In this document: in pieces, positions 239-57,705 of the stretch
Layout: each line of letters opens with the position of its first letter
How positions within the stretch are numbered: position 1 is the stretch's first letter
Sequence record: KC295538
DNA: 64,000 bases
From: Escherichia phage PBECO4
Strand: one strand, 5' to 3'
The notes under the pieces: model-generated
The model's database searches: none
What the model saw: the letters and a program-made list of their open reading frames with translations, nothing else
What the model was told of the DNA's origin: nothing
Translations under genes and position numbers: made by a program

Positions 239-254
239 ACCAAATCCTCCAGAT

Positions 255-1103: not shown

Positions 1104-1132
1104 ATACAATCCTCATAAATTTAGACAAAAAA

Positions 1133-1264: not shown

Positions 1265-1266
1265 AA

Positions 1267-1740: not shown

Positions 1741-1782
1741 GATCTATCCTTGATCTTCTAATGCACTCCATGTGCGTTTTTA

Positions 1783-4030: not shown

Positions 4031-4039
4031 ATTTCATTC

Positions 4040-5764: not shown

Positions 5765-5825
5765 AAAATTCTCCTTGAGAACAATGTATCATACAAAAAA
5801 ACCAGAGTCAACCCCTGGTACAAAT

Positions 5826-7903: not shown

Positions 7904-8474
7904 ATTTTTCCTTAACCGATTCTATATTTTGAAGTAGTGTATTCAGAACATCAGTCTTGTAATTGATAAAATCATTGTACATAACTAGTTCACCACAATC
8001 AAGAACTTTTGCAGTATCGTAACAAAGCATTAAGTACTCGAATTCTTTGTAATTGTCCAACAATGATTTCTGGAAAATGAATGCATCTCGAATATCTTCA
8101 CTTTGGTCTAATTCTGGTGGAACATCCAACCCAATAAAACCATCATCTTCACTGAAATCAGATTCTACAATTTTATTCATTTTTTCATGTAATGCATTCG
8201 CAAATACCATATTAGAAGAAATAGAACCAATACGTTCACGATTTCTGGATGTGCGAATGTACATAGTAATCGTATCCCATGAACTTTTAATTTTTTTAGA
8301 AAATTCATAAGTTTTATATACATCCAACTGAACTGAACCAAAACGATGTTTGGATTTGTTTTCAATTTTCAGTCGATAATCATCAAATTCAACAATTTCT
8401 GTAATGTCATGAATCTCTGAAAGTTCTGCAATGTCATGCATGAGTCTCAAAATTTTAGTTCTGATATGGTTCAT
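7890..8474 (-). CDS. FamA paralog
   Basis: 194 aa; DAFIFQKSLLD. Confidence 0.7.
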   Translation of the reverse strand: MNHIRTKILRLMHDIAELSEIHDITEIVEFDDYRLKIENKSKHRFGSVQLDVYKTYEFSKKIKSSWDTITMYIRTSRNRERIGSISSNMVFANALHEKMNKIVESDFSEDDGFIGLDVPPELDQSEDIRDAFIFQKSLLDNYKEFEYLMLCYDTAKVLDCGELVMYNDFINYKTDVLNTLLQNIESVKEKYERL

Positions 8475-9037
8475 TGTGCATCCTCGAATTTAACAGGTAC
8501 ATATTCATTAATGAAATTCTTAAGAGCCTGTACTAAATCCTCTAATTCTTTTGTACTGTATTTTAAAATAGTTTTAAAGTGAATCAAATCTTTTCTTTCC
8601 ATGATCTTTGGAATTTTATATGCTAACTCTAAACAGCGTACAGTACTGGCATCATACAAAAGGTTTGCGTTGAACATTAGCACATTGTATTCATCAGATG
8701 AAATTTTATAATTATATGTATCAATCACTTCATGTGTGTATAAATTCTTATACACAATTTTATTCTCACTGAAGTTTGAGCAAACACACAGATAATCGTT
8801 GTAAAATGAAGAACGATAATCTTGTTTACGTTGTACATCTGCTATGATTTGTAATACTGTATATTTTTCTTCAGAATCCAACTCAATGTTAGCATAACTG
8901 CTCGCAGTTTCAGATACAAGGATATTGATGTTATATTTCTCATTAACTTTAATGTACTGGCGTGAACCAGTATCAGGAATGAACTTAAAACAATGCTTCA
9001 GAAGTAAGGTAACTTCTTTAATTAATTCAGTACTCAT
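8471..9037 (-). CDS. hypothetical protein
   Basis: 188 aa ORF; motif degenerate. Confidence 0.55.
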   Translation of the reverse strand: MSTELIKEVTLLLKHCFKFIPDTGSRQYIKVNEKYNINILVSETASSYANIELDSEEKYTVLQIIADVQRKQDYRSSFYNDYLCVCSNFSENKIVYKNLYTHEVIDTYNYKISSDEYNVLMFNANLLYDASTVRCLELAYKIPKIMERKDLIHFKTILKYSTKELEDLVQALKNFINEYVPVKFEDAQ

Positions 9038-9108
9038 ATCTTCTCCTATCCTCTATTAAAAGCGATTATAACACATCTGAATGCTACTGTAAAGACATAA
9101 ACACAAAA

Positions 9109-9124
9109 AGACCCATAAGGGTCT
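9109..9124. terminator. bidirectional intrinsic terminator
   Basis: agacccataagggtct hairpin flanked by A-run and T-run. Confidence 0.55.
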
Positions 9125-9691
9125 TTATTTTGGTAAAACACTGTCAATGTACGCTAGAGCTTCATCTCTAAGGTACGTCCCATCTATTGTTAGGTAATAG
9201 TTCATGGGAATATCACTCCCAACGTTCTCATAAATTTTCATACATGATATCACATCTTCATCACAAATGGTACTCAATTGAAAAAGTACTTCATCGGTTA
9301 ACGGTACGATATCAAGTTTAGATATAGGATTGGTATTTTCATTCAACACAATATTAATCAAGTTAGGAGTATTCTTTGACGAAATGTAACGATGCTTACT
9401 ACGAATTACCATTCTCGATAGTGAAATACTGGAACTCCATCTTGGATCAACATCTTCATATGATAACGATATTAACATCTCGTGAAAATCTTGAAATTTC
9501 ATTGACGCATAATATGTTTTGTCCTCACCGTACATTCCAAATGATTTGAATTCAATATCCCCTACTTTGTATGTATCGACATCATTATTTGAGAACTTTA
9601 TTAAACTCTTAATTAGTCTAATTAGAATATCATCTTTATCCATTCTTAAATAACTCCAAGTGCATGTCGTATAAATCTCTGAAGTCTTCAT
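9125..9691 (-). CDS. FamA paralog
   Basis: 188 aa; DEVLFQLSTICD. Confidence 0.7.
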   Translation of the reverse strand: MKTSEIYTTCTWSYLRMDKDDILIRLIKSLIKFSNNDVDTYKVGDIEFKSFGMYGEDKTYYASMKFQDFHEMLISLSYEDVDPRWSSSISLSRMVIRSKHRYISSKNTPNLINIVLNENTNPISKLDIVPLTDEVLFQLSTICDEDVISCMKIYENVGSDIPMNYYLTIDGTYLRDEALAYIDSVLPK

Positions 9692-10199
9692 AGAAATCTT
9701 TTTCTACCAGAATATCCTTTAAACTAGGAAACTCTTCCATAATTTCTTCTATATCCGATTCTATGAAAAACCCTGATCGATTATCGTAGTTTTGTAACAG
9801 ATAACTGAAAGTAATAATGTAAAGAAGTTCATTAGGATTGTGAATTAAACTTAGCTGGAACATAGCTGATTCTAAATCGGATTCAGTACTAAGATCAACC
9901 CAACGTGAATTTCTATAATCAATTCGTACTTGACTTGTATTTGGATTCCATGTGAAGCAATGTGTACCAATATGACCTATACAACCAACCCTTGTACTGT
10001 CTCCGGTATCAACACTGATATCAACAAATAGTTCAACACAGATATCGGATGATGTTACACGACCTTTTTTCAGAAATAAATCATTATCCTTACGAAATTG
10101 TTTGGATGAAAGAGTGTCAATGATGCACATCAATGTTTTTGCAAATGCAACACAATGACGAAATTCAAGCCTATGAAATTGGTAATCATTGATATTCAT
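9636..10199 (-). CDS. FamA paralog
   Basis: 187 aa; ESAMFQLSLIH. Confidence 0.7.
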   Translation of the reverse strand: MNINDYQFHRLEFRHCVAFAKTLMCIIDTLSSKQFRKDNDLFLKKGRVTSSDICVELFVDISVDTGDSTRVGCIGHIGTHCFTWNPNTSQVRIDYRNSRWVDLSTESDLESAMFQLSLIHNPNELLYIITFSYLLQNYDNRSGFFIESDIEEIMEEFPSLKDILVEKDFYEDFRDLYDMHLELFKNG

Positions 10200-10738
10200 A
10201 ATTCAACCCCCAATATTTTATCAGCAATTGATATAACCTTATCATTGAATACATTACCAATCTCAATCCTTATATACATAGCAGGTGGAATCTTTCCTTG
10301 TAGTGAATAATATGTTTGTATACCTAAGTACTCATTATCTGATAATGAAAATTTGATTCTCTCCATATCAATGTCTGTTACTGGTAAATCAATCATTTCA
10401 TAATGGTAGTCAACGTTTTCAGTGTATATTTTATCGAAGTAATTTGAATAATCACTACTAATATAGATGCTATCATCACGAATAATCACTTTATAATCAG
10501 AAGGTTCAAATTTATCTTTAGAAGAAAAGAATGCATCATCTATCTTCTCTTCTCTTATACCGAATAACATTTTACCATCATATTTTACATCAAGAATACT
10601 ACCTAGTATATTAATGGTACAATGCTCATCAATATTATGACGTAAAGAATGAGTCTTGTATTTTGGGTTAATGAAAATTTTCATTAATTTTATACAAATG
10701 TCAGTAATGCATTTTACATTCTCATTTTCTATGTACAT
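10196..10738 (-). CDS. hypothetical protein
   Basis: 180 aa ORF. Confidence 0.55.
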   Translation of the reverse strand: MYIENENVKCITDICIKLMKIFINPKYKTHSLRHNIDEHCTINILGSILDVKYDGKMLFGIREEKIDDAFFSSKDKFEPSDYKVIIRDDSIYISSDYSNYFDKIYTENVDYHYEMIDLPVTDIDMERIKFSLSDNEYLGIQTYYSLQGKIPPAMYIRIEIGNVFNDKVISIADKILGVEL

Positions 10739-11216
10739 TAAAAGCCCTCTTTAATTCTTTTACATTTTTAATGAATACTTTCATTGCAGAAATCTCAAAA
10801 GATAATGTATTAAATTTGCAGTACTTTTTAAAGTACGACATAATGAATAGCATTTTGAGTTCTTTTTCTGTGTAAATTAAACTATTTTGAAAGTAACTTT
10901 CTTCTGATAAATCATCAAGAAACGGATATAAAACTCCATTTGTTCTCAAGAACATGATACCTTCACTCCATGATCTAAATGAAAGGTAATCAGTCTTACC
11001 ACATTCATATAAGGAGTTTATCATTCCATCAATCATTAAGGAGAACTCAATACTGTATCCTAATCTTTCACACTTGTATCTCTTATCTTCTTTCTTTGTA
11101 ATTACGAAGTGATGACCCAGTGAGTCTTTGTTATCGAAAATGAAATCAACTGTCTCTAAACACTCCTTAGCGAACTTCATAGTTTCTCTGTACTTTCGGT
11201 TCATTAGTCTCTCCAA
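10722..11216 (-). CDS. FamA paralog
   Basis: 164 aa; EESYFQNSLIY. Confidence 0.7.
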   Translation of the reverse strand: MERLMNRKYRETMKFAKECLETVDFIFDNKDSLGHHFVITKKEDKRYKCERLGYSIEFSLMIDGMINSLYECGKTDYLSFRSWSEGIMFLRTNGVLYPFLDDLSEESYFQNSLIYTEKELKMLFIMSYFKKYCKFNTLSFEISAMKVFIKNVKELKRAFNVHRK

Positions 11217-11617
11217 ACTTTACCAGGGAAGTGTTTCTCGTAGTACTCATCATCACTTAACATATAATCAGGAGTTTCTACTTCTATGGTTTTGAAGATT
11301 GTTTCTGGAATGTGTGTGACTTTATTGGGTTGTACTTTATGTTCGCGTAAAACCTTCTGTATCGCTCCTAGACGTTGTAAATCGATACATGTAGGAAAGA
11401 CTAAGCTGTACTGAAATAACTCATCAGGGGTCATTATAGACACATCTTTCGCTTGTTTGATTTGATAATTAGTACTAATGAATATATCAAATCCTTGTAC
11501 AGCATTATAGCTTACATAGGTTGTTTTATTTTTGTCAATAGGAGCACTTAAACGATATCCATATACCCCGTGTTGATCAACAAGACAGCGTTGTATAATT
11601 TTAATCATTTCTAACAT
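11204..11617 (-). CDS. FamA paralog
   Basis: 137 aa; PDELFQYSLVF. Confidence 0.7.
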   Translation of the reverse strand: MLEMIKIIQRCLVDQHGVYGYRLSAPIDKNKTTYVSYNAVQGFDIFISTNYQIKQAKDVSIMTPDELFQYSLVFPTCIDLQRLGAIQKVLREHKVQPNKVTHIPETIFKTIEVETPDYMLSDDEYYEKHFPGKVWRD

Positions 11618-11963
11618 AATTTACCTCATATGTATTGTAACACCACGGTTTAACAATATCGATTTGTATATCATTTGCTTCATGAAAATGTTTAAGTACC
11701 TTCTGGTATTCCATTATTTCGTACACATCTTCAGTACTGATAGTGCTCTCCTGAAATAATTCCTCTTCTGATAAAGTACTATAATCAGGGATTTTTATTT
11801 CTGAATATATATCATTTATCTTTCCATTATTTTGATAAATCTGGATATAAAATTGATTGTACTCTGGAATATAGGTTACATAATGGTTGTGGTTGATTAC
11901 ATATCTTGAAACAAAGTATTCAGTACCATCCGTCATGTACTGAATTGTTGTTGTATTATGCAT
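11601..11963 (-). CDS. FamA paralog
   Basis: 120 aa; EEELFQESTIS. Confidence 0.7.
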   Translation of the reverse strand: MHNTTTIQYMTDGTEYFVSRYVINHNHYVTYIPEYNQFYIQIYQNNGKINDIYSEIKIPDYSTLSEEELFQESTISTEDVYEIMEYQKVLKHFHEANDIQIDIVKPWCYNTYEVNYVRND

Positions 11964-12438
11964 TCAAATAATCCACGCATTGATGGTATACAACTAAATC
12001 TATAAAGAATCGTTGTTTGTATTTGTAATGATGAAGTAGTGCACCATAAAGTAATATAGCATTAAGTACTTTTGCATCATGAATACAAGACCCTTGGAAG
12101 TACATTTCTTCTGTCATGAAAACTAACTCACTATAAGGGACAAGCACTGAATCTCTAAAGGTATCAATATTAATCTTCAAATCAGACCCAGGGCAATATG
12201 AAATATATTCGGTTTTGTAATGAAAGTCATTATCATCAAAGTACTCCGCGTAGATTTGATTACCTCTAACATTAGTAAATGCTAGTCTTCCTTTAGATGA
12301 ACTGAACTCATCGTATTGAAACATACCACCAAAAGGCATTCCACCAAAAGGCTTAGGACTTCTGAACTCCTTTGCAATGCGATAGATATTTTCTGTAAAT
12401 TCTAAAACACCATCGTAATCATATTCTGTAGTAATCAT
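11956..12438 (-). CDS. FamA paralog
   Basis: 160 aa; EEMYFQGSCIHD. Confidence 0.7.
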   Translation of the reverse strand: MITTEYDYDGVLEFTENIYRIAKEFRSPKPFGGMPFGGMFQYDEFSSSKGRLAFTNVRGNQIYAEYFDDNDFHYKTEYISYCPGSDLKINIDTFRDSVLVPYSELVFMTEEMYFQGSCIHDAKVLNAILLYGALLHHYKYKQRFFIDLVVYHQCVDYLNA

Positions 12439-12911
12439 AAACCATTTTTCTCCAGGTACTCAATAATACAATCGACATTGTTCAGGTCCAAGTAGAAATG
12501 ATCACTATCGGAATTTAGTTCATTTTTAAGGGCAGTGTAAATCACAGAACTGAAAACAATCCTCTCTGGATACACAGTACTGTACTGGAAGAACTCTTCT
12601 TCAGTGTTAATTACAATCGTATTAAATGCTTCATTTATAAGAAGATGATTGTAGTATTTGAAATTATCTGAACTTGGAAAATGGTATGAAATAAAATCAC
12701 CACTTGGTACTTCATCAAGTACTCTAATGCTACAAGTTGATTCATCTGAACTATAGAGTAACCCATCCATAAATGAAAGGTATCCATTTCGTTTAATAAC
12801 TTTATGTTCCCCCACGGAAAAATCTTCAGTAACATTCGCAAGGAATTTATAAACCCTGATAATGTCTTTTGCTATTTTTTGTGCATTGCTAAATGATAGG
12901 TCTTTGGACAT
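12435..12911 (-). CDS. FamA paralog
   Basis: 158 aa; EEEFFQYSTVY ... FYLDL. Confidence 0.7.
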   Translation of the reverse strand: MSKDLSFSNAQKIAKDIIRVYKFLANVTEDFSVGEHKVIKRNGYLSFMDGLLYSSDESTCSIRVLDEVPSGDFISYHFPSSDNFKYYNHLLINEAFNTIVINTEEEFFQYSTVYPERIVFSSVIYTALKNELNSDSDHFYLDLNNVDCIIEYLEKNGL

Positions 12912-12970
12912 TGTGATATAACCCTTTACAATTAATATAAAGAGATTATATCACAAAGAATCGGAGGGTG

Positions 12971-13555
12971 TCAAGATGGGTTGCGAAGTTCTACCATTTC
13001 TTTCCAAACTAATTGGTAATCTTCTAAGTCCAGATAGAAGTCTTCATTCCAGTGCTCATAAAAGTACTTATACATGAATAGAACTCCTAAATCGTATGCA
13101 GGAAACAATAATGATAGTTGAAAGTAGTATTCCTGATTTAAAACTATATCAATGAACTCTAATGTACGTATGCCACCTTTCGATGAACGTATCTCAATGT
13201 GTGAGGTATCCTTTATACTGTAACACATGAAACCGCCTCTGAATTCTGGATCATATTCACATTCGAACTGCTCACTGTTGTTATAGAAATCTCTCCCACT
13301 TTCTTTATCTTTCGGTCTACGTACTGATACATGAATATTGTTATCACGGTACATTGAACGATTTAGTATTTTCAAACATTTGAACTTATTTTCTTTAATG
13401 AACTTGATAATATCAATTATATCTTGTGCTGTACTGATAGCTGATTCGAATGTATCCAACTTAAGATGATTATATTGTGTTCCATTGTTCATTTTTTCAT
13501 CTAACATATAAACCTCATAATTCATACATTTTTGATTTGAACTGCATATGACCAC
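12971..13555 (-). CDS. FamA paralog
   Basis: 194 aa; QEYYFQLSLLF ... FYLDL. Confidence 0.7.
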   Translation of the reverse strand: MVICSSNQKCMNYEVYMLDEKMNNGTQYNHLKLDTFESAISTAQDIIDIIKFIKENKFKCLKILNRSMYRDNNIHVSVRRPKDKESGRDFYNNSEQFECEYDPEFRGGFMCYSIKDTSHIEIRSSKGGIRTLEFIDIVLNQEYYFQLSLLFPAYDLGVLFMYKYFYEHWNEDFYLDLEDYQLVWKEMVELRNPS

Positions 13556-13850
13556 CTATTTCACATGGATAACAATTCATAATTTTGTTCAATAAAATCT
13601 GGTATTTTTTAATAACTTCTATATCAATTTTTATATTACTATTAAAAACTAATGATTCTTGAAATAATTCACCCTCGTCAAGTGAAGTAAAATCATTTAT
13701 CTTCAACGGTATATTGTTGCATCGCAAGGAGAATGTATTTTCATCACGAATTAAAGTATAGAAATCATTATGTTTTTTATTATAATCAAATTTCACAAGT
13801 AGTAGTTTAATATGAGTAGCGTACATTACTTTCACTAATTCAGTCTTCAT
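13515..13850 (-). CDS. FamA paralog
   Basis: 111 aa; EGELFQESLVF. Confidence 0.7.
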   Translation of the reverse strand: MKTELVKVMYATHIKLLLVKFDYNKKHNDFYTLIRDENTFSLRCNNIPLKINDFTSLDEGELFQESLVFNSNIKIDIEVIKKYQILLNKIMNCYPCEIGGHMQFKSKMYEL

Positions 13851-14202
13851 AACGGAATAAAATTCTCCTGTACTGCTCCGGTCCAGTACTCAATCTCTTC
13901 ACTGGATAATTATCAAAGATTCTTTTCATTTCTTTCTGGATTAAACATAAGAAATCAAAGTTACAATCGTACTTATTATCCCATACTAAACTTTCTTGGA
14001 ATAACTCATCCTCTTGCATTAGTGTAGTGTCAATTACATCTTCACGAACATAGCTATATACTTCATAGCTCTTGAAGCCATCTTCTGATAATTCTAATTC
14101 ATATGCAGCCATATCAAACATATCATCATGGTTTGTCTTCAATGATATAAAACAAGTAACTAATTTTTTAGTTGTATAGTATGTAATACTTAATGTGTTC
14201 AT
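13840..14202 (-). CDS. FamA paralog
   Basis: 120 aa; EDELFQESLVWD. Confidence 0.7.
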   Translation of the reverse strand: MNTLSITYYTTKKLVTCFISLKTNHDDMFDMAAYELELSEDGFKSYEVYSYVREDVIDTTLMQEDELFQESLVWDNKYDCNFDFLCLIQKEMKRIFDNYPVKRLSTGPEQYRRILFRYED

Positions 14203-14207
14203 TTGTT

Positions 14208-14810
14208 TTATACCTCAGTATAAAGCTTACAATAGCTTTCATCAAAATCACAAACACTTCTCAAGTACTGACACAGGTCAGTAAAAATATTTACATTTGC
14301 TATATATACATTATCAAATTCTACTCGTTGAAAGAATGTATGCATAGAATTTGTAATATATCTCATTGCAGATTCACGTTCCATCGTTAAATCATTTGTG
14401 AACATTGCATCTTCATCAGTACTGACTAATTCAATATCAAATGATTGCATATATGGAATACTCTTTCCTAGGGCATAACTATCACCATATGATGCTTCTA
14501 CTGCACCGTTAGAATACACCAATTGATATAAGTCCGAAATAGGGTTATAAAAAGTGCGGCAAATTGAGGAACATAATTTATTATTCATCCAATAGAAAAC
14601 CCTATTTGAATTACCGTCAAATGCTATACGCAATCCATCACCATCTAGAGTAATAATCCCATCCAGAATAAAAGAGAACTGAACTAATGCTTTTTCTAAG
14701 TCCATTCTTTTGTGATAAATGATTTCTTGCATATAGATAATATCATTTACTAATTTCTTAAAAAACAAATGCACATCTGCACTACAACATTTATTTGCAT
14801 TTATTGGCAT
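14208..14810 (-). CDS. FamA-like paralog (divergent)
   Basis: 200 aa; EKALVQFSFILD. Confidence 0.55.
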   Translation of the reverse strand: MPINANKCCSADVHLFFKKLVNDIIYMQEIIYHKRMDLEKALVQFSFILDGIITLDGDGLRIAFDGNSNRVFYWMNNKLCSSICRTFYNPISDLYQLVYSNGAVEASYGDSYALGKSIPYMQSFDIELVSTDEDAMFTNDLTMERESAMRYITNSMHTFFQRVEFDNVYIANVNIFTDLCQYLRSVCDFDESYCKLYTEV

Positions 14811-15361
14811 AATAGTTCCTTATACATATTATGTACTTTACAAATCTCATTATAGTATTTCATATCAATATCATTTGTATTAAAAACGGAAACAGACAAT
14901 ACCGCTAAATCATCAATGAAGTAATTATTATCGGCGTACTCTTTTAACTTATTGAACATATAGATGCATTTTATACTTAATTCATCATGCAACACACTGT
15001 TCTGAAAAATATTCTCTTCAGTATTAGGAGATAAGTAATCTTCAATTATATACGATAAACTACTATCGCAATCTTTATAGATTGAAATTGATGGATGTAA
15101 TGTGTCATACATTACACAAAACAGATCACCGTCATATGTGGATATTAAACTATTATTGGAAACAGTAGGATGATAATATTTCAGTACTGAAAACTTTGAA
15201 CAATCAGTGCAGTAAAAATGATCCATCCCTCGACGACTTTCGTATGAGAATAGTTTACTTGTATATTCAATCCCTTTGGTGCGACGGATTGTTTCATGCA
15301 TTTCATTGCATTGCATTAAAATTACCATACGTTCAAACGCAAGATCTAAATCATCGTACAT
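14801..15361 (-). CDS. FamA paralog
   Basis: 186 aa; EENIFQNSVLHD. Confidence 0.7.
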   Translation of the reverse strand: MYDDLDLAFERMVILMQCNEMHETIRRTKGIEYTSKLFSYESRRGMDHFYCTDCSKFSVLKYYHPTVSNNSLISTYDGDLFCVMYDTLHPSISIYKDCDSSLSYIIEDYLSPNTEENIFQNSVLHDELSIKCIYMFNKLKEYADNNYFIDDLAVLSVSVFNTNDIDMKYYNEICKVHNMYKELLCQ

Positions 15362-15542
15362 AACGGATATCCTTCTTCAACGAATTAATATATTCTAAAA
15401 TAACTTGTTCTTGGTATTGGGTTCCTAAGTACATCAGTACTTTCAACTCTTTGAATTCAGTACTATATGAGTCTGTTTGCATCATTCTAGTAGAATATAT
15501 ATTGAATAGTTTAGCAATGTCATTTTGGTCTATTATTATCAT
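15351..15542 (-). CDS. FamB paralog (LGTxxQE motif) embedded in FamA array
   Basis: 63 aa; MYLGTQYQEQVI. Confidence 0.6.
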   Translation of the reverse strand: MIIIDQNDIAKLFNIYSTRMMQTDSYSTEFKELKVLMYLGTQYQEQVILEYINSLKKDIRYVR

Positions 15543-15738
15543 ATATTCTCTTCTGGATTAGTTCCTGTAAGTGCTGAATATAACCCTTCATTGCAACATC
15601 CTGTTTGTTAGAGCCAACGAAGAACAAGAGCTTAAAGTCATGGTAATCCATTTTTGGTTTAGTAGTGAACCATATGTCCCACACTGCACTCACAGTTCTC
15701 ATGTATTCAATTCGATTAAATGTTTTTGAATACTTCAT
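15520..15738 (-). CDS. FamB-like paralog embedded in FamA array
   Basis: 72 aa; FFVGSNKQDVAM. Confidence 0.55.
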   Translation of the reverse strand: MKYSKTFNRIEYMRTVSAVWDIWFTTKPKMDYHDFKLLFFVGSNKQDVAMKGYIQHLQELIQKRIYDNNRPK

Positions 15739-16252
15739 CGATGTTCATCGCCAATAAGTTAATATACAAATTACTGTTAAATGCAATCTGCAATTCCATA
15801 TAGAACTGAATGATAGCATAGTCAGGGTCAGTACACGATAGTTGAAAACACTGTTCGTCAAATGCATTGTAATTGTACTTAGGGATGTGAATTTCACGCT
15901 TCAAATCAGGTTGACCCCACTTCATCGCATACACACCAATGTTATTGTTCTTTTTCCTTTTCTTAAATGTTAATTGTTGAATATTTCCAGCGTTGTCTAG
16001 GAAAATAGTATTATTCGACACAGGTGCACCAATAGAAAACAATGATGTATCAATTACGTGTGTCTCACGCACCTCACACTTCTGGAATGCCCCAGTACCC
16101 TGTAATACATAATGAAAATTGTACTTCTCATTAACAACAGTACTAGGATCGATTAAACCAGTACTGCATTTTTTGAGTACTGGTACAATGGTGCGAATCT
16201 TTTTTGATAAATCTTGTAATGCATCAAAGTCATTGATGTTAACTTTCATCAC
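15716..16252 (-). CDS. FamA-like paralog (divergent)
   Basis: 178 aa; DEQCFQLSCTD. Confidence 0.55.
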   Translation of the reverse strand: MMKVNINDFDALQDLSKKIRTIVPVLKKCSTGLIDPSTVVNEKYNFHYVLQGTGAFQKCEVRETHVIDTSLFSIGAPVSNNTIFLDNAGNIQQLTFKKRKKNNNIGVYAMKWGQPDLKREIHIPKYNYNAFDEQCFQLSCTDPDYAIIQFYMELQIAFNSNLYINLLAMNIDEVFKNI

Positions 16253-16698
16253 TCGAATGTAGCCTCTTCAGTAGTAACAAAATTGGTTAGTGTATCCAGT
16301 TCAGCAGTGTCAAGATAAAATACATCTAGTACAGATTTCTGATATATTACACTGAATGTGCATAGATTGTCAAGTGTTCCTTGTTCATAAACAGTACTAC
16401 CCTGGAAGTACCCTTCTTCAGTACTCAGGGATAAAATATCTGAAATTTTAAAAGATTCTTCAGTTGTATGTCTTTCTATATTAACTATATTGCCGTTTCG
16501 GTTCAATGAAATATAATCGTATGCTAACTCAATTAGACTATAATTATCCGCATTAGTGTCAAATAAAGCGACAATTTTTCGTCTCAATCTCTCATCGTGA
16601 TCATGGTTTTCATCAGCTAAGTATTCAGGATTTTCTTTGAAGAACTTAACAACTTTTAGAATATCATTTGCTTTCTTGATTGCACTTTCGTAACTCAT
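16249..16698 (-). CDS. FamA paralog
   Basis: 149 aa; EEGYFQGSTVY ... FYLDT. Confidence 0.7.
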   Translation of the reverse strand: MSYESAIKKANDILKVVKFFKENPEYLADENHDHDERLRRKIVALFDTNADNYSLIELAYDYISLNRNGNIVNIERHTTEESFKISDILSLSTEEGYFQGSTVYEQGTLDNLCTFSVIYQKSVLDVFYLDTAELDTLTNFVTTEEATFE

Positions 16699-17003
16699 AA
16701 TAATTCAACCACTCCATCTCTAAAGTACATATAACTACCACCATTGGATACTGTGAATTCTATTGTCCCCAATAATATATTATATTTTTTTATTTCACAT
16801 GTAGTACTTGTAGTGTAAGGCTCACCATCTCCTAAGTACATTGACATATGACATAGAACTTTTCTACCAGCATATTTCTCTTCAAACGATTGTTCAAAAC
16901 TATGCATAATTTGATTTAAAGCTGAAATGTAATTAATAAAGTCAGGTATTTCTGTCAATGAATTATAAACCGTACAAAGTGAATCAAATTCATTTTTAGT
17001 CAT
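16695..17003 (-). CDS. hypothetical protein
   Basis: 102 aa ORF; no family motif. Confidence 0.55.
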   Translation of the reverse strand: MTKNEFDSLCTVYNSLTEIPDFINYISALNQIMHSFEQSFEEKYAGRKVLCHMSMYLGDGEPYTTSTTCEIKKYNILLGTIEFTVSNGGSYMYFRDGVVELL

Positions 17004-17317
17004 TATATTTCTATCTCAATGTAATCCTGTGTGATTAAGTAATCCCAATGATACTTCACCTGCTTTTGTAATTCAATTAACGTAAAGAAGTTGATCGATT
17101 TATCCCACACGAGCGATTCCTGGAAAATAAATGATTCATGTTCATCGTAATAATCACACTCTAAAAAATCAGGTATATATTCACTATCGTGAATGTATTC
17201 AACAAACGAACTAGCTTGGCATTTCTTTACTACTAGTAATAATGAATTATCATGATCAAACAGATACAATAAACTAATTTCACCAGGGACGTACTGAACA
17301 CTGAATAAGTTTTTCAT
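17003..17317 (-). CDS. FamA paralog
   Basis: 104 aa; ESFIFQESLVWD. Confidence 0.7.
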   Translation of the reverse strand: MKNLFSVQYVPGEISLLYLFDHDNSLLLVVKKCQASSFVEYIHDSEYIPDFLECDYYDEHESFIFQESLVWDKSINFFTLIELQKQVKYHWDYLITQDYIEIEI

Positions 17318-17766
17318 TCTATACCTTCTGGATCTTTACGAAGTTCTTCGAAATCCAAATAAAATCGAGGACAGTTAACACTCTTTAAGTACCACATAAT
17401 AACTAATGCTTCAAGTACTTCATCATCGTAAACAGTACTGTTTTGGAAGTAATATTCTTCACTATCCCACGGACCATCCAGTACTTCATAATTCAAAATT
17501 AATGGTTTTTTGCGATTAATAAAACGAATGCTACCATTTTCAACATAACTAATAAATTCTGCATCTCTATTGTATTCAGAAAACGATATAGGACTATTGG
17601 AATTCAACCCAAGAATAACCCTTACACCAACGGAGTTATTATACATTTCATCTTTGTAGTAGTTGCCGTTCTCGGCTTTGTACACTTCTTTGAACTTTCC
17701 TGCCTTTATATCGTCAAAGTATCCATGTAGTTCTTTTGCTTTTTCAAGAGCACTTTGTAATGACAT
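17314..17766 (-). CDS. FamA paralog, MSLQSALEKAK subfamily copy 1
   Basis: 150 aa; WDSEEYYFQNSTVYD; FYLDFEEL. Confidence 0.75.
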   Translation of the reverse strand: MSLQSALEKAKELHGYFDDIKAGKFKEVYKAENGNYYKDEMYNNSVGVRVILGLNSNSPISFSEYNRDAEFISYVENGSIRFINRKKPLILNYEVLDGPWDSEEYYFQNSTVYDDEVLEALVIMWYLKSVNCPRFYLDFEELRKDPEGIE

Positions 17767-18232
17767 TACCTTCTCCTACAGTATTCTCTACATATTCATA
17801 ATCAAAATAGAAACTACTGGAGTCAATACTTTTGAAATACCACATAATCACAATAACATCCAGTTCTTCTTCATTGTACAACGTACTATTCTGGAAGTAA
17901 TACTCTTCACTATCCCACGGACCTTCTAGTACTGAATAAGGAATGATAGTGTCATCAGCATCACTATCTGTGTTGTAGATGGTAATATCTTCATTACGGC
18001 AATAACTAATGTACTGATTGTACATATGATATTCACAGTTATCACTGTCACCAGTATCAGTGTGCAGTACTAATGTTTCTGCACATATCTCGGACTCGTC
18101 ATAATCGTCACGGTCTTTTACAAAAAATTCAGTATCAGATGTTTTATATACACCTGGAACTGAACCTTCTTGTACCATAATCATATACTCATGAATCTTC
18201 TTTGCTTCTTTCAATGCACTTTGTAACGACAT
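17744..18232 (-). CDS. FamA paralog, MSLQSALEKAK subfamily copy 2
   Basis: 162 aa; WDSEEYYFQNSTLYN. Confidence 0.75.
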   Translation of the reverse strand: MSLQSALKEAKKIHEYMIMVQEGSVPGVYKTSDTEFFVKDRDDYDESEICAETLVLHTDTGDSDNCEYHMYNQYISYCRNEDITIYNTDSDADDTIIPYSVLEGPWDSEEYYFQNSTLYNEEELDVIVIMWYFKSIDSSSFYFDYEYVENTVGEGNVITKCS

Positions 18233-18675
18233 TACAAATCCCCTGAACTTAAATATTCACATGCTCCCCAGTCAAGAAAGAATGGTTCAAAATTCAATTC
18301 CTTAAAGTACCACAACACAACCAAGGAATCAAGCATTTCTTGGTTAAAAATGAAACTCTGTTGGAAGTAATACTCTTCAGTACCCCACGGGCCATCAAGT
18401 ACCCCGAAGTCAACAGGTGCATTTGATGTGTCAAACGTAATCTTAGTACCTGGAATATATACAAAAAAACTAGTATATTGACTACATGAAGAGTACTGTA
18501 TAGTATTGTCTTTATCCTGTCCCATAAGTAAAATATCATCAGAATATGTCTTTATACCTGATAGATAATACTCATCACCAAATGCACTTACTTTATCACC
18601 ATAGAACCCACTTTTTATGTTATCGTGGAAGTGATGTATTCTGTGTGCTAGTTCAAGTGCACTTGCTAAACTCAT
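18232..18675 (-). CDS. FamA paralog, MSLQSALEKAK subfamily copy 3
   Basis: 147 aa; WGTEEYYFQQSFIFN. Confidence 0.75.
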   Translation of the reverse strand: MSLASALELAHRIHHFHDNIKSGFYGDKVSAFGDEYYLSGIKTYSDDILLMGQDKDNTIQYSSCSQYTSFFVYIPGTKITFDTSNAPVDFGVLDGPWGTEEYYFQQSFIFNQEMLDSLVVLWYFKELNFEPFFLDWGACEYLSSGDL

Positions 18676-19142
18676 ATATCCTCTTTAATAACTCGTAGTA
18701 GATCCAAGTCCAAATAGAAGCTAGGACAATCTGTATTATTAAAGTACCACAGAATGACAAGCTTGTCAAGTACATCTTCTGCGTAGATCGTATTCTGCTG
18801 GAAGTAGTACTCTTCACTTCCCCAGTCATTATCCAGTACTGAATACGGAAGATGTTTCTCTGCTGCACCAGATATAATGTCAGAATCTTGTATTAAAATA
18901 TCAGCATCACGACAGAAGTACATGTAATTATCTTCCAAATTAACATCACACCCATTGAGTGTTGTTTCAGAAGAATCTAAGTTTTCTTCATACATGTGAA
19001 TGTACTCACTACTGTCATCGTATCTCATTCGACAATAAGATTTACCTTCCTTGAATAGATATCCATTGAGACAATTTGCTACAATTTCTTTGCTGCATAA
19101 ATCAATTAACTTCGCAATCTCTAATGCTCTTTCTAAACTCAT
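18672..19142 (-). CDS. FamA paralog, MSLQSALEKAK subfamily copy 4
   Basis: 156 aa; WGSEEYYFQQNTIYA. Confidence 0.75.
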   Translation of the reverse strand: MSLERALEIAKLIDLCSKEIVANCLNGYLFKEGKSYCRMRYDDSSEYIHMYEENLDSSETTLNGCDVNLEDNYMYFCRDADILIQDSDIISGAAEKHLPYSVLDNDWGSEEYYFQQNTIYAEDVLDKLVILWYFNNTDCPSFYLDLDLLRVIKEDI

Positions 19143-19143
19143 T

Positions 19144-19635
19144 TTAACCCCTGTTAATACCGTTATCTACAGTTTTCTTTACGTATTTGTAATCGAAATA
19201 GAAGTTCCCAGAACCAATACTTTTAAAGTACCACATAATTATAATAACATCAAGCACTTCATTATCGTATACAGTACTTTGTTGGAAGTAATACTCTTCA
19301 CTATCCCACGGACCTTCCAGTACTTCACTCGGAATTATAATGTCATCGGAATCGCTATCAGTACTGTAGATGGTATCTGTATCATTAATATAGACCATGT
19401 ACTCATTATGCATATTAATGAAGCATTCATAATCATTAGGGTCGGTATCCAGTACACACGTTTCTGTATCCAGTACGCACGTTTCTGTATCTGAGTCGTC
19501 ATTATTAAGGAGGTTATCCGGTACATAATATTGAGTACTTGTGTCTTTGAAAACACCGTAAACTGAACCTTCTTTTGCCATATTCATGTACTCATGAATC
19601 TTCTTTGCTTTTTCCAATGAACTCTGTAATGTCAT
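19144..19635 (-). CDS. FamA paralog, MSLQSALEKAK subfamily copy 5
   Basis: 163 aa; WDSEEYYFQQSTVYD. Confidence 0.75.
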   Translation of the reverse strand: MTLQSSLEKAKKIHEYMNMAKEGSVYGVFKDTSTQYYVPDNLLNNDDSDTETCVLDTETCVLDTDPNDYECFINMHNEYMVYINDTDTIYSTDSDSDDIIIPSEVLEGPWDSEEYYFQQSTVYDNEVLDVIIIMWYFKSIGSGNFYFDYKYVKKTVDNGINRG

Positions 19636-19644
19636 TTTATAATC

Positions 19645-19998
19645 TCATATATTGAAATAATAATTATTCGTTCTTGATGGGGATGGATTAAATACGTTTT
19701 CTTTTTCAAATCTCTTCATTTCATTTTGCAAAGAAACCATTTCTTCAAATGTACAGGAGTACTTATTCTTATCAAACACTAATGCAGCCTGAAATAGTTC
19801 ACCATCGTCCAGTACTGTATAATCTATAAGACTCTCAGATTCATAGTCATCATGTGATACATGAATAAATTTAAAACAAGAATCTTTGTAATGCATATAT
19901 AAACTCAACTCATGTTCCGAGTCTCCCTTAATAAGATTACAGCACAAGTCCCATCCTTTAGGTAACTTATAATAGTACATAGAATAATCATATGTCAT
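19645..19998 (-). CDS. FamA paralog, LFQxALVFDKKY subfamily
   Basis: 117 aa; DGELFQAALVFDKNKYSCTFEEM. Confidence 0.7.
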   Translation of the reverse strand: MTYDYSMYYYKLPKGWDLCCNLIKGDSEHELSLYMHYKDSCFKFIHVSHDDYESESLIDYTVLDDGELFQAALVFDKNKYSCTFEEMVSLQNEMKRFEKENVFNPSPSRTNNYYFNI

Positions 19999-20354
19999 TC
20001 TTGAATTCCTAAATTGAATTTGTATTCTTGATTAATACTTGCATTGGGTTTATTCAAAGCAGCATACTCTTTCATTTCATTTTGTATTGCAATAACTTCT
20101 TCAAATGTACACAAGTACTTCTTATCAAATACTAATGATTCTTGGAATAGTTCTGCGGTATCCATTAATGTATAGTCAGGCATATCTTGGTGTGGATACT
20201 GTAATGAACTGTAATCAATGAATGTAAATTTACCCTGAGTGTAATGAATATACTCATTTGCACTGTGCATTAAATCACCTTTGTTTAAATTACAAAAGTA
20301 CTGATAACTGTGCTTAAAAGAATGTACTGATATTAAAAAATCAAATTCCATCAC
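19995..20354 (-). CDS. FamA paralog, LFQxALVFDKKY subfamily
   Basis: 119 aa; TAELFQESLVFDKKYLCTFEEV. Confidence 0.7.
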   Translation of the reverse strand: MMEFDFLISVHSFKHSYQYFCNLNKGDLMHSANEYIHYTQGKFTFIDYSSLQYPHQDMPDYTLMDTAELFQESLVFDKKYLCTFEEVIAIQNEMKEYAALNKPNASINQEYKFNLGIQE

Positions 20355-20728
20355 TCTTCCCCTAGATTGAAATGATTACAAAAATTATCTTCACCAGTAC
20401 TGCACCAGATATCTATACATTCCCTGTGAATACATTTAATTCTACGCTGTAATTCAATCATCTCTTCTAATGTACAGATGTACTTCTTATCAAATACTAA
20501 TGCCTCCTGAAACAGTGCAGCATCATCAAGTACTGTATAGTCCAACATCTCGGTTGCTTTACCCCTAAACCCAGTACTAAAATCCATCAAATAAAAGTCA
20601 GCATTCCAGTACTTTAAAATCTTGTCCCTAGCGTAGTTTAAATCACCCTTGTATAAGTTAGAGTGCGTAACTAACTCACCAGTGTACATCCATGTCCTTG
20701 CACAAAATTCATTATATTTTATTTCCAT
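20351..20728 (-). CDS. FamA paralog, LFQxALVFDKKY subfamily
   Basis: Start moved to ATG at 20728 (MEIKYNEF...); DAALFQEALVFDKKYICTLEEM. Confidence 0.7.
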   Translation of the reverse strand: MEIKYNEFCARTWMYTGELVTHSNLYKGDLNYARDKILKYWNADFYLMDFSTGFRGKATEMLDYTVLDDAALFQEALVFDKKYICTLEEMIELQRRIKCIHRECIDIWCSTGEDNFCNHFNLGEE

Positions 20729-20778
20729 CTTAATCTCTACTATAATTAATAAGGTAAACTCCAATATAAGGAGCACGT

Positions 20779-20909
20779 TGCGGGGCGGGGTATTTTTTTG
20801 TTTCAGGAAACATGCCCTGTACTCTGAAAAACACAATATAAAACTTTATATTAAACATATACCTTAACATGTTTTTCAGCGGAAATTTTTTTGACCCCCC
20901 CCTGCGGCC
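20779..20909. other. GC-rich structured intergenic element (G-tract ... C-tract)
   Basis: gcggggcgggg + T-run at 20780-20800 and gacccccccctgcggcc at 20893-20909 can pair across ~100 nt; unusual in AT-rich context. Confidence 0.4.
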
Positions 20910-20927
20910 TGTCAAAATGAAACGTCT

Positions 20928-21137
20928 CTATTTATTCAGCCTAGAAAGCTTGATTTCTTCAATCCTTTTCATTGCACAAAGCCTTCGACTCGTCATCTCG
21001 TATAAATTCAATACTCGGTTTACCGTATTATCTACACTCTGAACCAAATATGTATCCTTCAAAATCAAATCCATCATGTATTCAAAACCCTTAATACTAT
21101 GCGAACTTATCACTTCCGGCTCTTCAAACGTAATCAT
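20928..21137 (-). CDS. hypothetical protein
   Basis: 69 aa ORF. Confidence 0.5.
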   Translation of the reverse strand: MITFEEPEVISSHSIKGFEYMMDLILKDTYLVQSVDNTVNRVLNLYEMTSRRLCAMKRIEEIKLSRLNK

Positions 21138-21327
21138 AATTCCAATCCCCTATTCCCTCTAACCTTCTAAGATATCTTGCGTAAATTATTTCGAAATATC
21201 TGTGCAACGAAATTACGGATTGCTCATAATCATCATTCCTGTACATTGTGCATGTAAGAAAATCATTTAAACCGTAATCTAAACTGCACTTGAACTTCTC
21301 CTTTGCAACATCTCTAAAATTATTCAT
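21124..21327 (-). CDS. hypothetical protein
   Basis: 67 aa ORF. Confidence 0.5.
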   Translation of the reverse strand: MNNFRDVAKEKFKCSLDYGLNDFLTCTMYRNDDYEQSVISLHRYFEIIYARYLRRLEGIGDWNYDYV

Positions 21328-21487
21328 AATATGTCCTCTGTACAGCGTAGGTGTACTGTGAACTCAGCACCACTAATAGGTAATCTATATTGTAAGCACG
21401 ATTTCCTCGTTGACTAGCACGACTGGAATAAAGAATATTATCCACATATGCATTGAACTGATCTTCAAATAACTCTTTCATCAGCAT
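21324..21487 (-). CDS. small hypothetical protein (54 aa)
   Basis: ATG ORF MLMKELFEDQFNAY...; ATGA stop/start overlap with downstream gene. Confidence 0.35.
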
Positions 21488-21509
21488 TATACCATCACAT
21501 AATCATACA

Positions 21510-22061
21510 TCATACATTAACAACTTTATCGATGTAATCTTCTAACATATCAATATATCTGGTATTGGTTCTAACTAAAAGGTATGCAAATCCAGAAAAC
21601 TCCTGTGTATAATGCTTTACAGCGTACATACAACGAAGCTTATCATTGTCATACATTGTACTGTACTGAAACAAACTCTCGTCTGATAGCTCTAATAACG
21701 CTTGGGCTTCACTTCTCGTGAACTTCATAGGGTCATGTACTGCATCACAAAAACAAACCTGTGTCTCGCTATTGAAACCCTGTGATAGATATATACCTTC
21801 ACACTCTGAACGCACCGATACTGCATTATAACTATGTGTTGCCCCCATCATATCTGAACTCAAAACTAAAATCAACCCATTTTTATTTTTAATCAACAAA
21901 TCTGACTTAAGGGATTTGATCTCCGTATGGGAAATATCACCAAATCTTCCTGGGACTTCAAACTTATCAACGTTGTATACAATCTTTTGTACTTGCTCTT
22001 TTAAACGCTTAATTGCACTTCTGTCTTTTTCTAATGTATCTAATAAACTCATTGAACTCAT
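21510..22061 (-). CDS. FamA paralog
   Basis: Start moved to ATG at 22061 (MSSMSLL...); DESLFQYSTMYD. Confidence 0.65.
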   Translation of the reverse strand: MSSMSLLDTLEKDRSAIKRLKEQVQKIVYNVDKFEVPGRFGDISHTEIKSLKSDLLIKNKNGLILVLSSDMMGATHSYNAVSVRSECEGIYLSQGFNSETQVCFCDAVHDPMKFTRSEAQALLELSDESLFQYSTMYDNDKLRCMYAVKHYTQEFSGFAYLLVRTNTRYIDMLEDYIDKVVNV

Positions 22062-35883: not shown

Positions 35884-35916
35884 AGGATAAAATCCATAGG
35901 TTCATATGTGAAAAAA

Positions 35917-35942
35917 CATCATACCCCATGTGAGGCATGATG
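35917..35942 (-). terminator. intrinsic terminator
   Basis: catcataccccatgtgaggcatgatg hairpin followed on minus strand by T6. Confidence 0.5.
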
Positions 35943-35969
35943 TCAAGATGTTTTGTTCATATAAATGCA

Positions 35970-36335
35970 TTATACTTCAAATGAAATATTCCCAGTAGCA
36001 CGTGAGTCTTTACAATTCTCAATAGTAGTACATCCCAATTTTTGTATTTCACGTACCAATTCAATAGGAAGTTTAAAATCCCATTTCTTCGCTTCTTTTG
36101 CGAACGCTTTCTCGGACAGTACAACTAAGTTTTTTATACGAATCAATGAATAGATATCTGCATATTGATTTTCATCAATAGAAAATACCATTTCGTTATT
36201 GTTGCTAACAACTGATACAAGGGTGTCAGGTGCTTCAGTGATATCAGCAATGAATGATTTTATAGTAGATGTAGGTTTAAAAAACAACCATTCTACATTA
36301 AAGGAAGTACCACATTTATTAGATGATGGATTCAT
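35970..36335 (-). CDS. hypothetical protein
   Basis: 121 aa ORF. Confidence 0.55.
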   Translation of the reverse strand: MNPSSNKCGTSFNVEWLFFKPTSTIKSFIADITEAPDTLVSVVSNNNEMVFSIDENQYADIYSLIRIKNLVVLSEKAFAKEAKKWDFKLPIELVREIQKLGCTTIENCKDSRATGNISFEV

Positions 36336-36425
36336 AGTTCGGTGACCTCTAAAGTTGAGTTAATGTAACTAACATATAAAATATGAATGAAATATAATAT
36401 AGACTATATATTATCAGAATTATAT

Positions 36426-36590
36426 AAAAAGTCAAGCCCCTATCACTCCTTTTTTCGAAGTCGCTAAGGTTACCCGCCCTTTAGCCCCCTACGCATTTTG
36501 CCATAGTCCAATCCCTTTTATTTCAAAAAAGTCAAGGGATTACCTATGCATTTTTTTAACGCATAATTTTAAAAACGCCTTGACTTTTTT
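36426..36590. repeat. intergenic repeat cluster (aaaaagtcaagg direct and inverted copies; tacgcatt repeats)
   Basis: aaaaagtcaagcccc, aaaaaagtcaaggg and inverted ccttgactttttt within 165 bp of ORF-free DNA. Confidence 0.5.
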
Positions 36591-36618
36591 CTGAATCAGT
36601 ACTAGATCCCTTTACGCA

Positions 36619-36828
36619 TTAATCCTTCGTTACGCTAACGATTATCTGTGTATCCCCGTAGTCCTGCCATACTTCCACGCCATCGGTCGCCCTGGTTAGT
36701 CGTGCTGTCATCTGCTTAATGGTCTTAGGCTTTAGTGGAACCTGTTGCAGTACTGTACGCATAGCATCATTGACGTTATCATGTACGCCTGCAATAGTAC
36801 CTAGAACGCTGTATACTGTATAGAACAT
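36619..36828 (-). CDS. hypothetical protein
   Basis: 69 aa ORF; AGGAG SD. Confidence 0.55.
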   Translation of the reverse strand: MFYTVYSVLGTIAGVHDNVNDAMRTVLQQVPLKPKTIKQMTARLTRATDGVEVWQDYGDTQIIVSVTKD

Positions 36829-36896
36829 ATGTATGTACTCCTGATATAGTTAAGGCCGCTACAAGGCGGCCTATGATGTTTGGTGATGTGTAACGC

Positions 36897-57077: not shown

Positions 57078-57705
57078 TAGCTTTCTTTCATTATTCAGTA
57101 CTGATATTCTTGAGAACTACCCGACTACAAACATCATTATATCCCACAAATCATAAACGTCCCAACGTAAATTTCAACTTTCGAAGATCCAACTTTTATT
57201 TCATAGGTACTCCAAAATTTTTAGGATCGAGATTTAGGATGGAGTACTAACCAACTTTTTGCTGGAGCCTCAAGGGGTAATGGAATTTTACCCCGAAGGG
57301 TAAAGGGGTAATTGAAATTAAGGTGAAAGTAATAATTCAGTACTAATCATTGCGTGATTACTTTTGATTACATTTGATGTAATTTGAAAAATGGAAAAGG
57401 AGCTTGGAAACTACAAAGTACGGCAGACTTCCTCTGCCTACTTAGTGGCATATCAGTACTGAATCCTTCCCGTGCATTCTTGAGCATTCTTGTCTATACT
57501 AATCAGTACTGAATCATATATAATCATTCTGTGATTCTACGGTGCTCATATAAATGTTTATATATGATTACTTATGACTACCTATGATTACGGGGTTTAG
57601 CCTGGGGAGAATCCTAGTGATCGCATTTGTCCAGGCTGAATTTTAACAATTCGCCTGTACATAAAGGTTGTTCACTAGGAGCTTCCCCTGTCTACTTGTG
57701 TTTAA

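Follow-up and report, generated by a model that had tools for sequence, protein, structure and literature searches.

The cos site of phage lambda consists of a nicking site (cosN) and a recognition region (cosB), which contains the R3, R2 and R1 boxes bound by the small terminase subunit and the IHF site I1. In phages T3 and T7, a recognition element (pacB) and cleavage sites (pacC) flank a direct terminal repeat of 160–230 bp at the concatemer junction. Longer terminal repeats (10–13 kb) that carry the earliest expressed genes are found in T5 and SPO1, and the inner end of the T5 repeat has been proposed to hold an injection pause signal. The classical model for the duplication of terminal repeats involves staggered nicks and strand displacement, which requires 3′-OH ends that point into the repeat. 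For phages with long exact repeats (T5, SPO1 and many jumbo phages), it is poorly understood how concatemers are cut and how the repeat is duplicated. For T5 and SPO1, the cis-acting sites of end formation have, to our knowledge, not been defined at the sequence level, so that their motifs cannot be used for comparison. Lastly, T4-type phages contain promoter–stem-loop cassettes (PeSLs) that are linked to the modular shuffling of small early genes.

Here, we describe a non-coding module of ~160 bp in a 64,000-base stretch of phage DNA (the window, meaning the whole stretch that was analyzed). The 3 kb around this module are 97–99% identical to the Asteriusvirus jumbo coliphages BF17, phAPEC6, G17 and 121Q; judged by sequence, the window is part of an Asteriusvirus genome of ~350 kb, with E. 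coli as its host. We infer that the module probably acts as a DNA maturation site of the cos/pac kind, with a promoter next to it.

Repeats at the edge of a long terminal repeat

The module lies in a gap of 283 bp (36336-36618) without ORFs, flanked by orf121 (35970..36335) and orf69 (36619..36828), and all genes around it are on the minus strand. A preliminary description of this DNA had reported several repeats in the gap, and the window sequence bears these out: aaaaagtcaagcccc is found at 36426-36440, aaaaaagtcaaggg at 36525-36538 and the inverted copy ccttgactttttt at 36578-36590, with tacgcatt-like copies at 36490, 36547 and 36613 and acgcataa at 36559. Below, 36426-36436 is designated copy C, the box at 36525 copy B (box 1), and 36578-36590 copy A (box 2). 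A repeat search returned a perfect 13-nt inverted repeat, formed by AAAAAAGTCAAGG (36525-36537) and CCTTGACTTTTTT (36578-36590) with 40 nt in between, and a second inverted pair of 11 nt that involves copy C. The hexamer ACGCAT occurs 32 times in the window, with three of these in the gap.

The shared motif CTTGACTTTTT (allowing at most one mismatch) has exactly three copies in the 64,000 bases, all within one 165-bp stretch. Short A/T-rich motifs recur readily, and the window-wide count of three is close to the 2.9 copies per 64 kb expected from shuffled sequence, as would be the case for chance similarity in AT-rich intergenic DNA. However, shuffling predicts only ~0.008 copies for a stretch of 165 bp, which means that the clustering is real. 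In addition, 33 Asteriusvirus records contain the segment, most of them with few or no changes, and other genera carry the boxes at the same position. Clustering and cross-genus conservation have thereby already refuted chance as an explanation, leaving it next to no probability.

In related phages, a physical chromosome end has been mapped inside this locus. The end of the direct terminal repeat (DTR) in G17, fEgEco12 and vB_Ec-M-J reads GCTA^AGGTTACCC (the caret marks the cut), which corresponds to the step between 36466 and 36467 in the window. Position 1 of the G17 record (AGGTTACCCGCC...) equals window position 36467, and this record is linear, with redundancies of ~20 kb visible in the coverage (PMC6563267). 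The vB_Ec-M-J record carries an annotation 'Direct Terminal Repeats' at 1..21525, whose end at 21525 is the same base, 36467. The fEgEco12 DTR, of 20,993 bp according to PhageTerm and restriction digests (PMC13070987), likewise ends on the window equivalent of 36467. vB_Ec-M-J differs by a single base (A/AA) on the 5′ side of the cut; otherwise, the surroundings of the cut are identical in the window and these relatives. At the opposite terminus, the G17 and vB_Ec-M-J records read ...GGCAGACTTCCTCTGCCTACT, which is 57422-57442 in the window. The end positions used here are those of the relatives (G17, fEgEco12 and vB_Ec-M-J) transferred to the window. Every mapped end derives from restriction maps, read depth or pile-ups of reads, and in some records the end may have been placed by analogy with an earlier entry.

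Placed on the window, the DTR spans 36467-57442 (20,976 bp) and is present as a single copy. This is the collapsed or concatemer form, in which one DTR copy is flanked by both unique ends. It is well supported that the repeats sit on the junction between unique DNA and the DTR, where one physical end of the virion chromosome is made: copy C is located 31 bp outside the DTR, and copies B and A are located 59 and 112 bp inside it. The DTR holds roughly 50 genes, all of which are transcribed from the far end toward the 36467 end. The preliminary description had considered a recombination site plausible at the gap. A DNA-processing or recombination-type site is indeed plausible at this functional boundary, which has turned out to be the inner edge of a 21-kb direct terminal repeat.

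It had also placed a change in gene organization at the gap. This change is confirmed and coincides with a switch in composition, as the palindrome AGTACT has no sites in 31001-36466 vs 130 sites in the DTR (36467-57442). Both the organization of the genes and the density of AGTACT change abruptly at this point because the DTR edge lies there. The first AGTACT site after a 5.6-kb stretch free of them is in TCAGTACTAG (36596..36605), and TCAGTACT is invariant in Asteriusvirus and present in RaK2. The window as a whole contains 258 AGTACT sites vs 18.8 expected (13.7-fold), with the next palindromic hexamer at only 2.25-fold, and Klebsiella phage fENko-Kae01 has 122 vs 6.3 expected. Besides the overlapping-gene array beside the module, a 7.6-kb stretch (20701-28300) is free of the palindrome. 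Elsewhere, both coding and non-coding sequence contain it, as do two promoter classes of the DTR, TTGACA-N9-AGTACTGTATAAT and AGTACTTGCA...TATAAT. Our literature search returned no description of an AGTACT excess in jumbo phages, and we found no explanation for it.

Compared with its relatives, the window is a mosaic. Its right DTR boundary (57300-57620) is 100% identical to phAPEC6 and only 81.7% to BF17, while for the left boundary (35000-38000) both BF17 and phAPEC6 are 99.3% identical over the aligned part, with query coverages of 99% vs 81%.

Conservation of the cut site and its boxes

The module comprises the cut motif as well as CCTTTAG at +12, CATAGTCCAA at +36, and two AAGTCAA boxes at ~+60 and at +100–125. 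The terminus-generating site itself, GCTA^AG (36463..36468, plus strand, cut between 36466 and 36467), is assigned from the mapped ends and from conservation. It forms the left arm of an imperfect inverted repeat, GCTAAGG / CCTTTAGC (36463-36485), and is invariant in 13/13 Asteriusvirus genomes as well as in an alignment of 12 lineages. Since the window contains 14 occurrences of GCTAAG, specificity must come from the flanking boxes. One of these is CATAGTCCAA (36502..36511, plus strand), at +36 to +45 from the terminus and invariant in alignments A2 and A4. The cut motif and this box, which are the most conserved elements of the module, were absent from the preliminary description. Between them lies CTACGCATT (36489..36497, plus strand), the first tacgcatt-like copy, of which the ACGCAT part does not vary within Asteriusvirus; other genera have an A-rich stretch in its place.

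Further inside the DTR, at +59, box 1 reads AAAAAAGTCAAGGGATTACCTATGCATTTT (36525..36554, plus strand) and is a candidate protein-binding box. Its pattern, AAAAGTCAAG(G/C).ATTACCTRYGCATTTT, is kept in Asteriusvirus, Pectobacterium phage CBB and the lineages L025, L042 and L076, and partly in fENko-Kae01, L027 and L037. Overlapping the end of box 1 is an inner inverted repeat, TATGCA-T7-AACGCATA (36544..36566, plus strand), which holds the second and third tacgcatt-like copies and makes up the 9-bp inner helix of the predicted fold; its CTAYGCATTTT part is kept across lineages as the box 1 tail. Box 2, CCTTGACTTTTTT (36578..36590, minus strand), is an inverted AAGTCAA box at +112 that can form a 13-bp stem with box 1. 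The fourth tacgcatt-like copy, TACGCATTA (36613..36621, plus strand), overlaps the stop codon of orf69 and is invariant in Asteriusvirus.

The preliminary description had proposed a comparison with related genomes, and this comparison finds the module both within Asteriusvirus and in other genera. In 13 aligned Asteriusvirus genomes, the invariant blocks are GCTA^AGGTTACCC, CCCC.ACGCAT, CATAGTCCAATCC.T and TCAGTACTA.ATCC.TTTACGCATTAATCC. In the same alignment, boxes B and A are strongly diverged or replaced in the viable isolates Turkey5 and JNE01, so these boxes are not strictly essential in that form. Turkey5 (L010, 700-873) additionally shows a tandem duplication of ~76 bp between box 1 and orf69 (TTTTTTGCGTAG...TCAGTACTAAATCCTTTTACGCATTAATCCTTCGTTA, twice), and in its box 1 segment, TAAGGTATTGGTTTA, it matches Klebsiella phage RaK2 exactly and not the other Asteriusvirus genomes.

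Independently mapped repeat ends outside Asteriusvirus are available for two phages. fENko-Kae01 has a repeat of 19,736 bp by PhageTerm (PMC11218385), the end of which reads GGTGGCTA^AGGCAT with CATAGTCCAAT at +36, followed by AAAAGTCAA and the inverted CTTGACTT. For CBB, a repeat of 22,456 bp was derived from doubled read depth, and the total genome size including repeats was checked by PFGE (PMC5259590); its end reads CCTCGCTA^AGCGTT, with CATAGTGCAA at +36 and AAGGGATTACCTATGCATTTTAAAAGTCAAG beyond. In Asteriusvirus, fENko-Kae01 and CBB, the mapped repeats therefore end at the same GCTA^AG dinucleotide. RaK2 and uncultivated relatives also carry the module, in these at a predicted repeat edge. 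A direct search of RaK2 with GCTAAGGTTACCC (at most three mismatches) returned nothing meaningful as a left boundary, and the site was instead located by the switch in organization together with the spaced motif. In this phage, spaced cassettes give way to packed gene arrays ~19.8 kb from the right-end core, and the switch is marked by AAAAGTGCTA^AGCC, CACAGTCC at exactly +36, an AGTCAA/TTGACT pair and TTCAGTACTGAA.

The spacing GCTAAG-N33-CAYAGTCC is identical in the window, RaK2 and fENko-Kae01, in each case at the repeat edge or organization switch, and an estimate from the base specificity of the pattern predicts ~1 occurrence per 1e9 positions. A scan of IMG/VR with GCTAAG-N33-CAYAGTCCRA returned Rak2-like contigs of 355-371 kb, including one of 354,378 bp, with the same N33 spacing. 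Most of the 54 hits belong to an unrelated coding family and were discarded, so that only Rak2-like contigs were used. CBB has the same spacing with one mismatch in the box. Across the 12-lineage alignment, GCT-A-G and CA.AGTCC.A are invariant, with the cut sequence conserved above the surrounding non-coding DNA, and the flanking genes cannot be aligned between genera. By these sequence comparisons, the module is conserved across at least five lineages of Rak2-like jumbo phages. Box 2 is inverted in Asteriusvirus and fENko-Kae01 and direct, ~30 nt past box 1, in RaK2, CBB and the IMG/VR lineages. The inverted repeat that had been pointed out originally is thus present in the window, but it is not a conserved feature, since most related lineages carry box 2 in direct orientation.

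A related cleavage motif is found at the other boundary of the DTR, on the opposite strand. Here, the terminus taken from the G17 and vB_Ec-M-J records (57441..57464, minus strand, cut between 57442 and 57443) reads ATTCAGTACTGATATGCCACTA^AG. Read from outside to inside, the left boundaries are GTCGCTA^AG in Asteriusvirus, GTGGCTA^AG in fENko-Kae01, CTCGCTA^AG in CBB and, as an inferred site, AGTGCTA^AG in RaK2. The right boundaries, on the other strand, are GCCACTA^AG in Asteriusvirus (and, inferred, in RaK2) and TCCGCTA^TA in fENko-Kae01 and CBB, where CCGCTA^TAT is found at the corresponding mapped right ends. What the two boundaries have in common is a short core (CTA plus flanks), and their flanking boxes differ. 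ACTTAGTGGCATATCAGTACT is 100% identical in Klebsiella Alcyoneusvirus phages, as is the right-end core ACT^TAGTGGCATATCAGTACT in Alcyoneusvirus phages such as RaK2 and K64-1. In RaK2 (JQ513383; L019/L020), the two motifs predict a DTR of 19,848 bp at 224815-244662 of the record, with the edges GCTA^AG at 244662 and ACT^TAG at 224815; the stretches of this record that were examined contain no terminal-repeat annotation.

The surroundings of the right terminus have features of their own. Around 57442, a region of ~1.3 kb (56380-57705) is without a convincing gene and contains nine TCAGTACT(G/A)A palindromes, and RaK2 has an equivalent gap of 1.5 kb. Iterons of 10 bp, TGATTAC(T/A)TT, are present on both sides of the cut (57352-57385 and 57557-57593), and a hairpin, GTAcGGCAGA-CTTCC-TCTGCCTAC, stops one base short of the terminus.

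Promoter, terminator and operator readings

Copy C is the only one of the three copies with a −10 element at 16–18 nt. It contains the −35 hexamer of a sigma-70-type promoter, TTGACT-16-TAATAT with a TG before the −10 (36408..36436, minus strand), which reads into orf121 and the gene array. Copy C is kept in 12/13 Asteriusvirus genomes, and an equivalent promoter is found at the same place in phAPEC6 (TTGACT-16-TAAAAT) and fENko-Kae01 (TTGACA-17-TATACT). Copy C takes no part in the proposed maturation machinery and instead supplies the −35 hexamer for the promoter of the first operon beyond the DTR. Copies B and A were rejected as promoters, since they have no acceptable −10 at this spacing on either strand in any lineage; their best candidates, ATTGGA and TAGATC, are both missing from the promoter scan, and the whole of box 1 in the window sequence likewise lacks a −10 at promoter spacing. 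Also rejected was TTGACTTTTT as a generic phage promoter element, given that it is found nowhere else in the 64 kb and that the DTR's own promoters are of the two AGTACT-containing types described above.

The preliminary description considered an operator plausible. In such a scenario, the three TTGACTTTTT copies would bind a phage or host regulator of the promoter at 36435..36408, cooperatively or by looping. In its favor, one of the copies covers part of the −35, the two direct copies are separated by 100 bp (~9.5 helical turns), and the motif is found nowhere else in the 64 kb. On the other hand, TTGACT at copy C is fully accounted for as a −35 hexamer, boxes 1 and 2 exist in other lineages without a matching box at the promoter, and no DNA-binding domain was hit in the flanking proteins, of which the first array gene and orf69 match only families of 'unknown function' (phrog_17833 for orf69). 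Together with the missing −10 at copies B and A, this leaves the operator reading without direct support, and we regard it as very improbable.

The genes on both sides differ in their distribution. orf69 (minus strand) is the last gene of the DTR and has homologs in phAPEC6 (gp490c) and G17 (G17_00001). orf121 (minus strand), which has no Pfam or PHROG match, lies just outside the DTR and forms an extra cassette with a second promoter (TTGACA-17-TATGAT, 35946..35918); among relatives with gene order examined, it is present only in the window and BF17. The window diverges from phAPEC6 and G17 starting ~13 nt outside the DTR cut (window 35884-36450; phAPEC6 L002 2385-2450), briefly rejoins them at the shared −35 region TTGACTTTTTATAT, and does so permanently at the start codon of the first array gene. 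Such a pattern of divergence and rejoining suggests, at the sequence level, cassette exchange at the promoter.

Since the DTR genes are arranged as promoter-plus-hairpin cassettes, the boundary might be purely transcriptional, with AAAAAAGTCAAGG/CCTTGACTTTTTT as a bidirectional intrinsic terminator for orf69, copy C as the next promoter, and the DTR edge as incidental. The promoter at 36435..36408 is a good one, at the same place in phAPEC6 and fENko-Kae01, and the segment folds stably as RNA from both strands: the minus-strand transcript (36600-36515) has a predicted energy of −23.6 kcal/mol (z −5.4) and a stem followed by U6, and the plus-strand RNA has a z of −3.2. The stem has seven central pairs, GUCAAGG, within a stable extended fold. 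However, this stem is mostly A-T and its 40-nt loop is far from that of a canonical terminator, which has a G+C-rich stem, a loop of 3–8 nt and a U-run; a pattern scan for intrinsic terminators called none here. The boxes are direct in CBB, L025, L027, L037, L042 and L076, where they cannot pair, and the structure is significant only in Asteriusvirus and RaK2 (z −0.8 in fENko-Kae01, −0.7 in L027). Moreover, a transcriptional boundary leaves unexplained why GCTA^AG and CATAGTCCAA stay invariant at a fixed distance from the mapped chromosome end in five lineages. We therefore consider it unlikely as the whole explanation.

As orientation flips and folds are insignificant outside Asteriusvirus and RaK2, the hairpin or terminator was rejected as a conserved feature, and no compensatory changes in it were seen within the 13 aligned Asteriusvirus genomes. 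The change in box 2 orientation and the restricted structure instead favor protein-binding sites: the conserved feature would be the boxes themselves, as candidate binding sites. In Asteriusvirus, the inverted pair may, according to the folding model, also terminate transcripts of orf69, and part of the conservation of the module could thus be transcriptional, given a credible bidirectional terminator in this genus and the adjacent promoter. An Rfam search gave a single match, bglG-cis-reg, at 28.4 bits vs a gathering score of 80, which we judged to be chance, so a known RNA family was rejected. A tRNA or tmRNA remnant was likewise rejected, as ARAGORN finds none in the window.

A proposed maturation site and its relation to known systems

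As a maturation site, the module would be bound by the terminase, probably via its small subunit and possibly with the help of a host bending protein, at the boxes just inside the DTR. The recognition boxes would be CATAGTCCAA and the AAGTCAA boxes with their GGGATTACCTAYGCATTTT tail, all on the packaged side of the cut. The terminase would then nick 3′ of GCTA, between 36466 and 36467, and packaging would start into the DTR. With nicks 3′ of (G/A)CTA on opposite strands at both edges, the 3′-OH ends would point into the DTR, and strand-displacement synthesis could copy the 21 kb, resulting in two daughter chromosomes that each receive a full repeat. The 36467 end would be packaged first, and the opposite end would enter the cell first with its early promoters firing inward; on established phage biology, the direction of all DTR genes, from the far end toward 36467, fits this order.

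The conservation of the module and its constant distance from the physical end would equally fit another chromosome-end function, such as an origin or priming site for DTR replication or recombination, the binding of a protein that protects the ends or is related to ejection, or a signal that pauses injection. The repeated boxes with their flexible orientation and an adjoining AT-rich segment fit such a function, and so do the iterons and dense palindromes in the 1.3-kb non-coding region at the opposite boundary. Yet there are no DnaA-box-like or other recognizable origin features at the module, and it is the cut motif that is most conserved and that the two boundaries share in inverse orientation, which points to end formation. 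Another end function in place of terminase recognition is therefore rather improbable, somewhat less so than an operator.

Returning to end formation, one module might be shared well beyond this phage. Asteriusvirus, Alcyoneusvirus, Mimasvirus, the fENko-Kae01 group and an IMG/VR lineage could, as a tentative proposal from their sequences, have a previously undescribed end module in common. In such a module, CATAGTCCAA and the AAGTCAA boxes would direct a T4-type terminase to the two edges of a repeat of ~20 kb; the enzyme would nick one strand at the first edge and the other strand at the second, each time 3′ of GCTA, and strand displacement would duplicate the repeat. Published reports of ~20-kb repeats in these phages do not describe the boundary sequences, and literature searches for the boundary motif found no prior description. 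The cut site can be read directly here; it is conserved across genera, with boxes at fixed distance and a short motif shared by the two edges on opposite strands. If such a shared module exists, the staggered-nick model would for the first time have sequence-level evidence in a phage with long terminal repeats, and the signature GCTAAG-N33-CAYAGTCC would predict the physical ends of any such genome, as for the RaK2 repeat of 19,848 bp. Genomes of this group have mostly been deposited as circularly permuted assemblies that lack defined ends. For these, the motif pair permits prediction of the true termini and of the length of the repeat, which is relevant to annotation, engineering and the characterization of therapeutic phages.

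The module has no sequence similarity to the lambda, T3/T7, T5 or SPO1 systems, and its likeness to them is one of layout. As in lambda cos, a defined nick site appears to be accompanied by short repeated boxes of mixed orientation, ~50–150 bp away on the packaged side, and these would confer specificity as cosB does for cosN. Box 1 resembles an IHF site as well: read by eye, AGTCAAGGGATTA matches the IHF consensus WATCAANNNNTTR at 8/9 defined positions, which makes it a candidate. In contrast to lambda, which has 12-nt cohesive ends and no terminal repeat, the cuts here are ~21 kb apart and the DNA between them must be duplicated.

The phages described here resemble T3 and T7 in that their direct terminal repeats are exact and that each junction of the replicated DNA contains a single repeat copy. 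In both, ends are formed in a sequence-specific manner at each boundary, accessory repeats lie beside the ends, and the repeat has to be duplicated during maturation. Here, however, a jumbo myovirus with a T4-type terminase carries a repeat of 21 kb, ~100 times the length of theirs, and the motifs are unrelated; we know of no report of an inverted (G/A)CTA^ motif at both repeat boundaries for T7. The likeness to T5 and SPO1 lies in a long exact repeat of small early genes, strong host-type promoters and repeat-rich non-coding DNA at a repeat boundary. Finally, the DTR resembles PeSLs in its small genes flanked by an early promoter and a hairpin, and in the orf121 cassette that is gained or lost at a junction starting with a promoter. 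PeSLs, however, are dispersed, near-identical elements of ~50–60 nt, whereas the TTGACTTTTT boxes occur only at this locus and are tied to a chromosome end.
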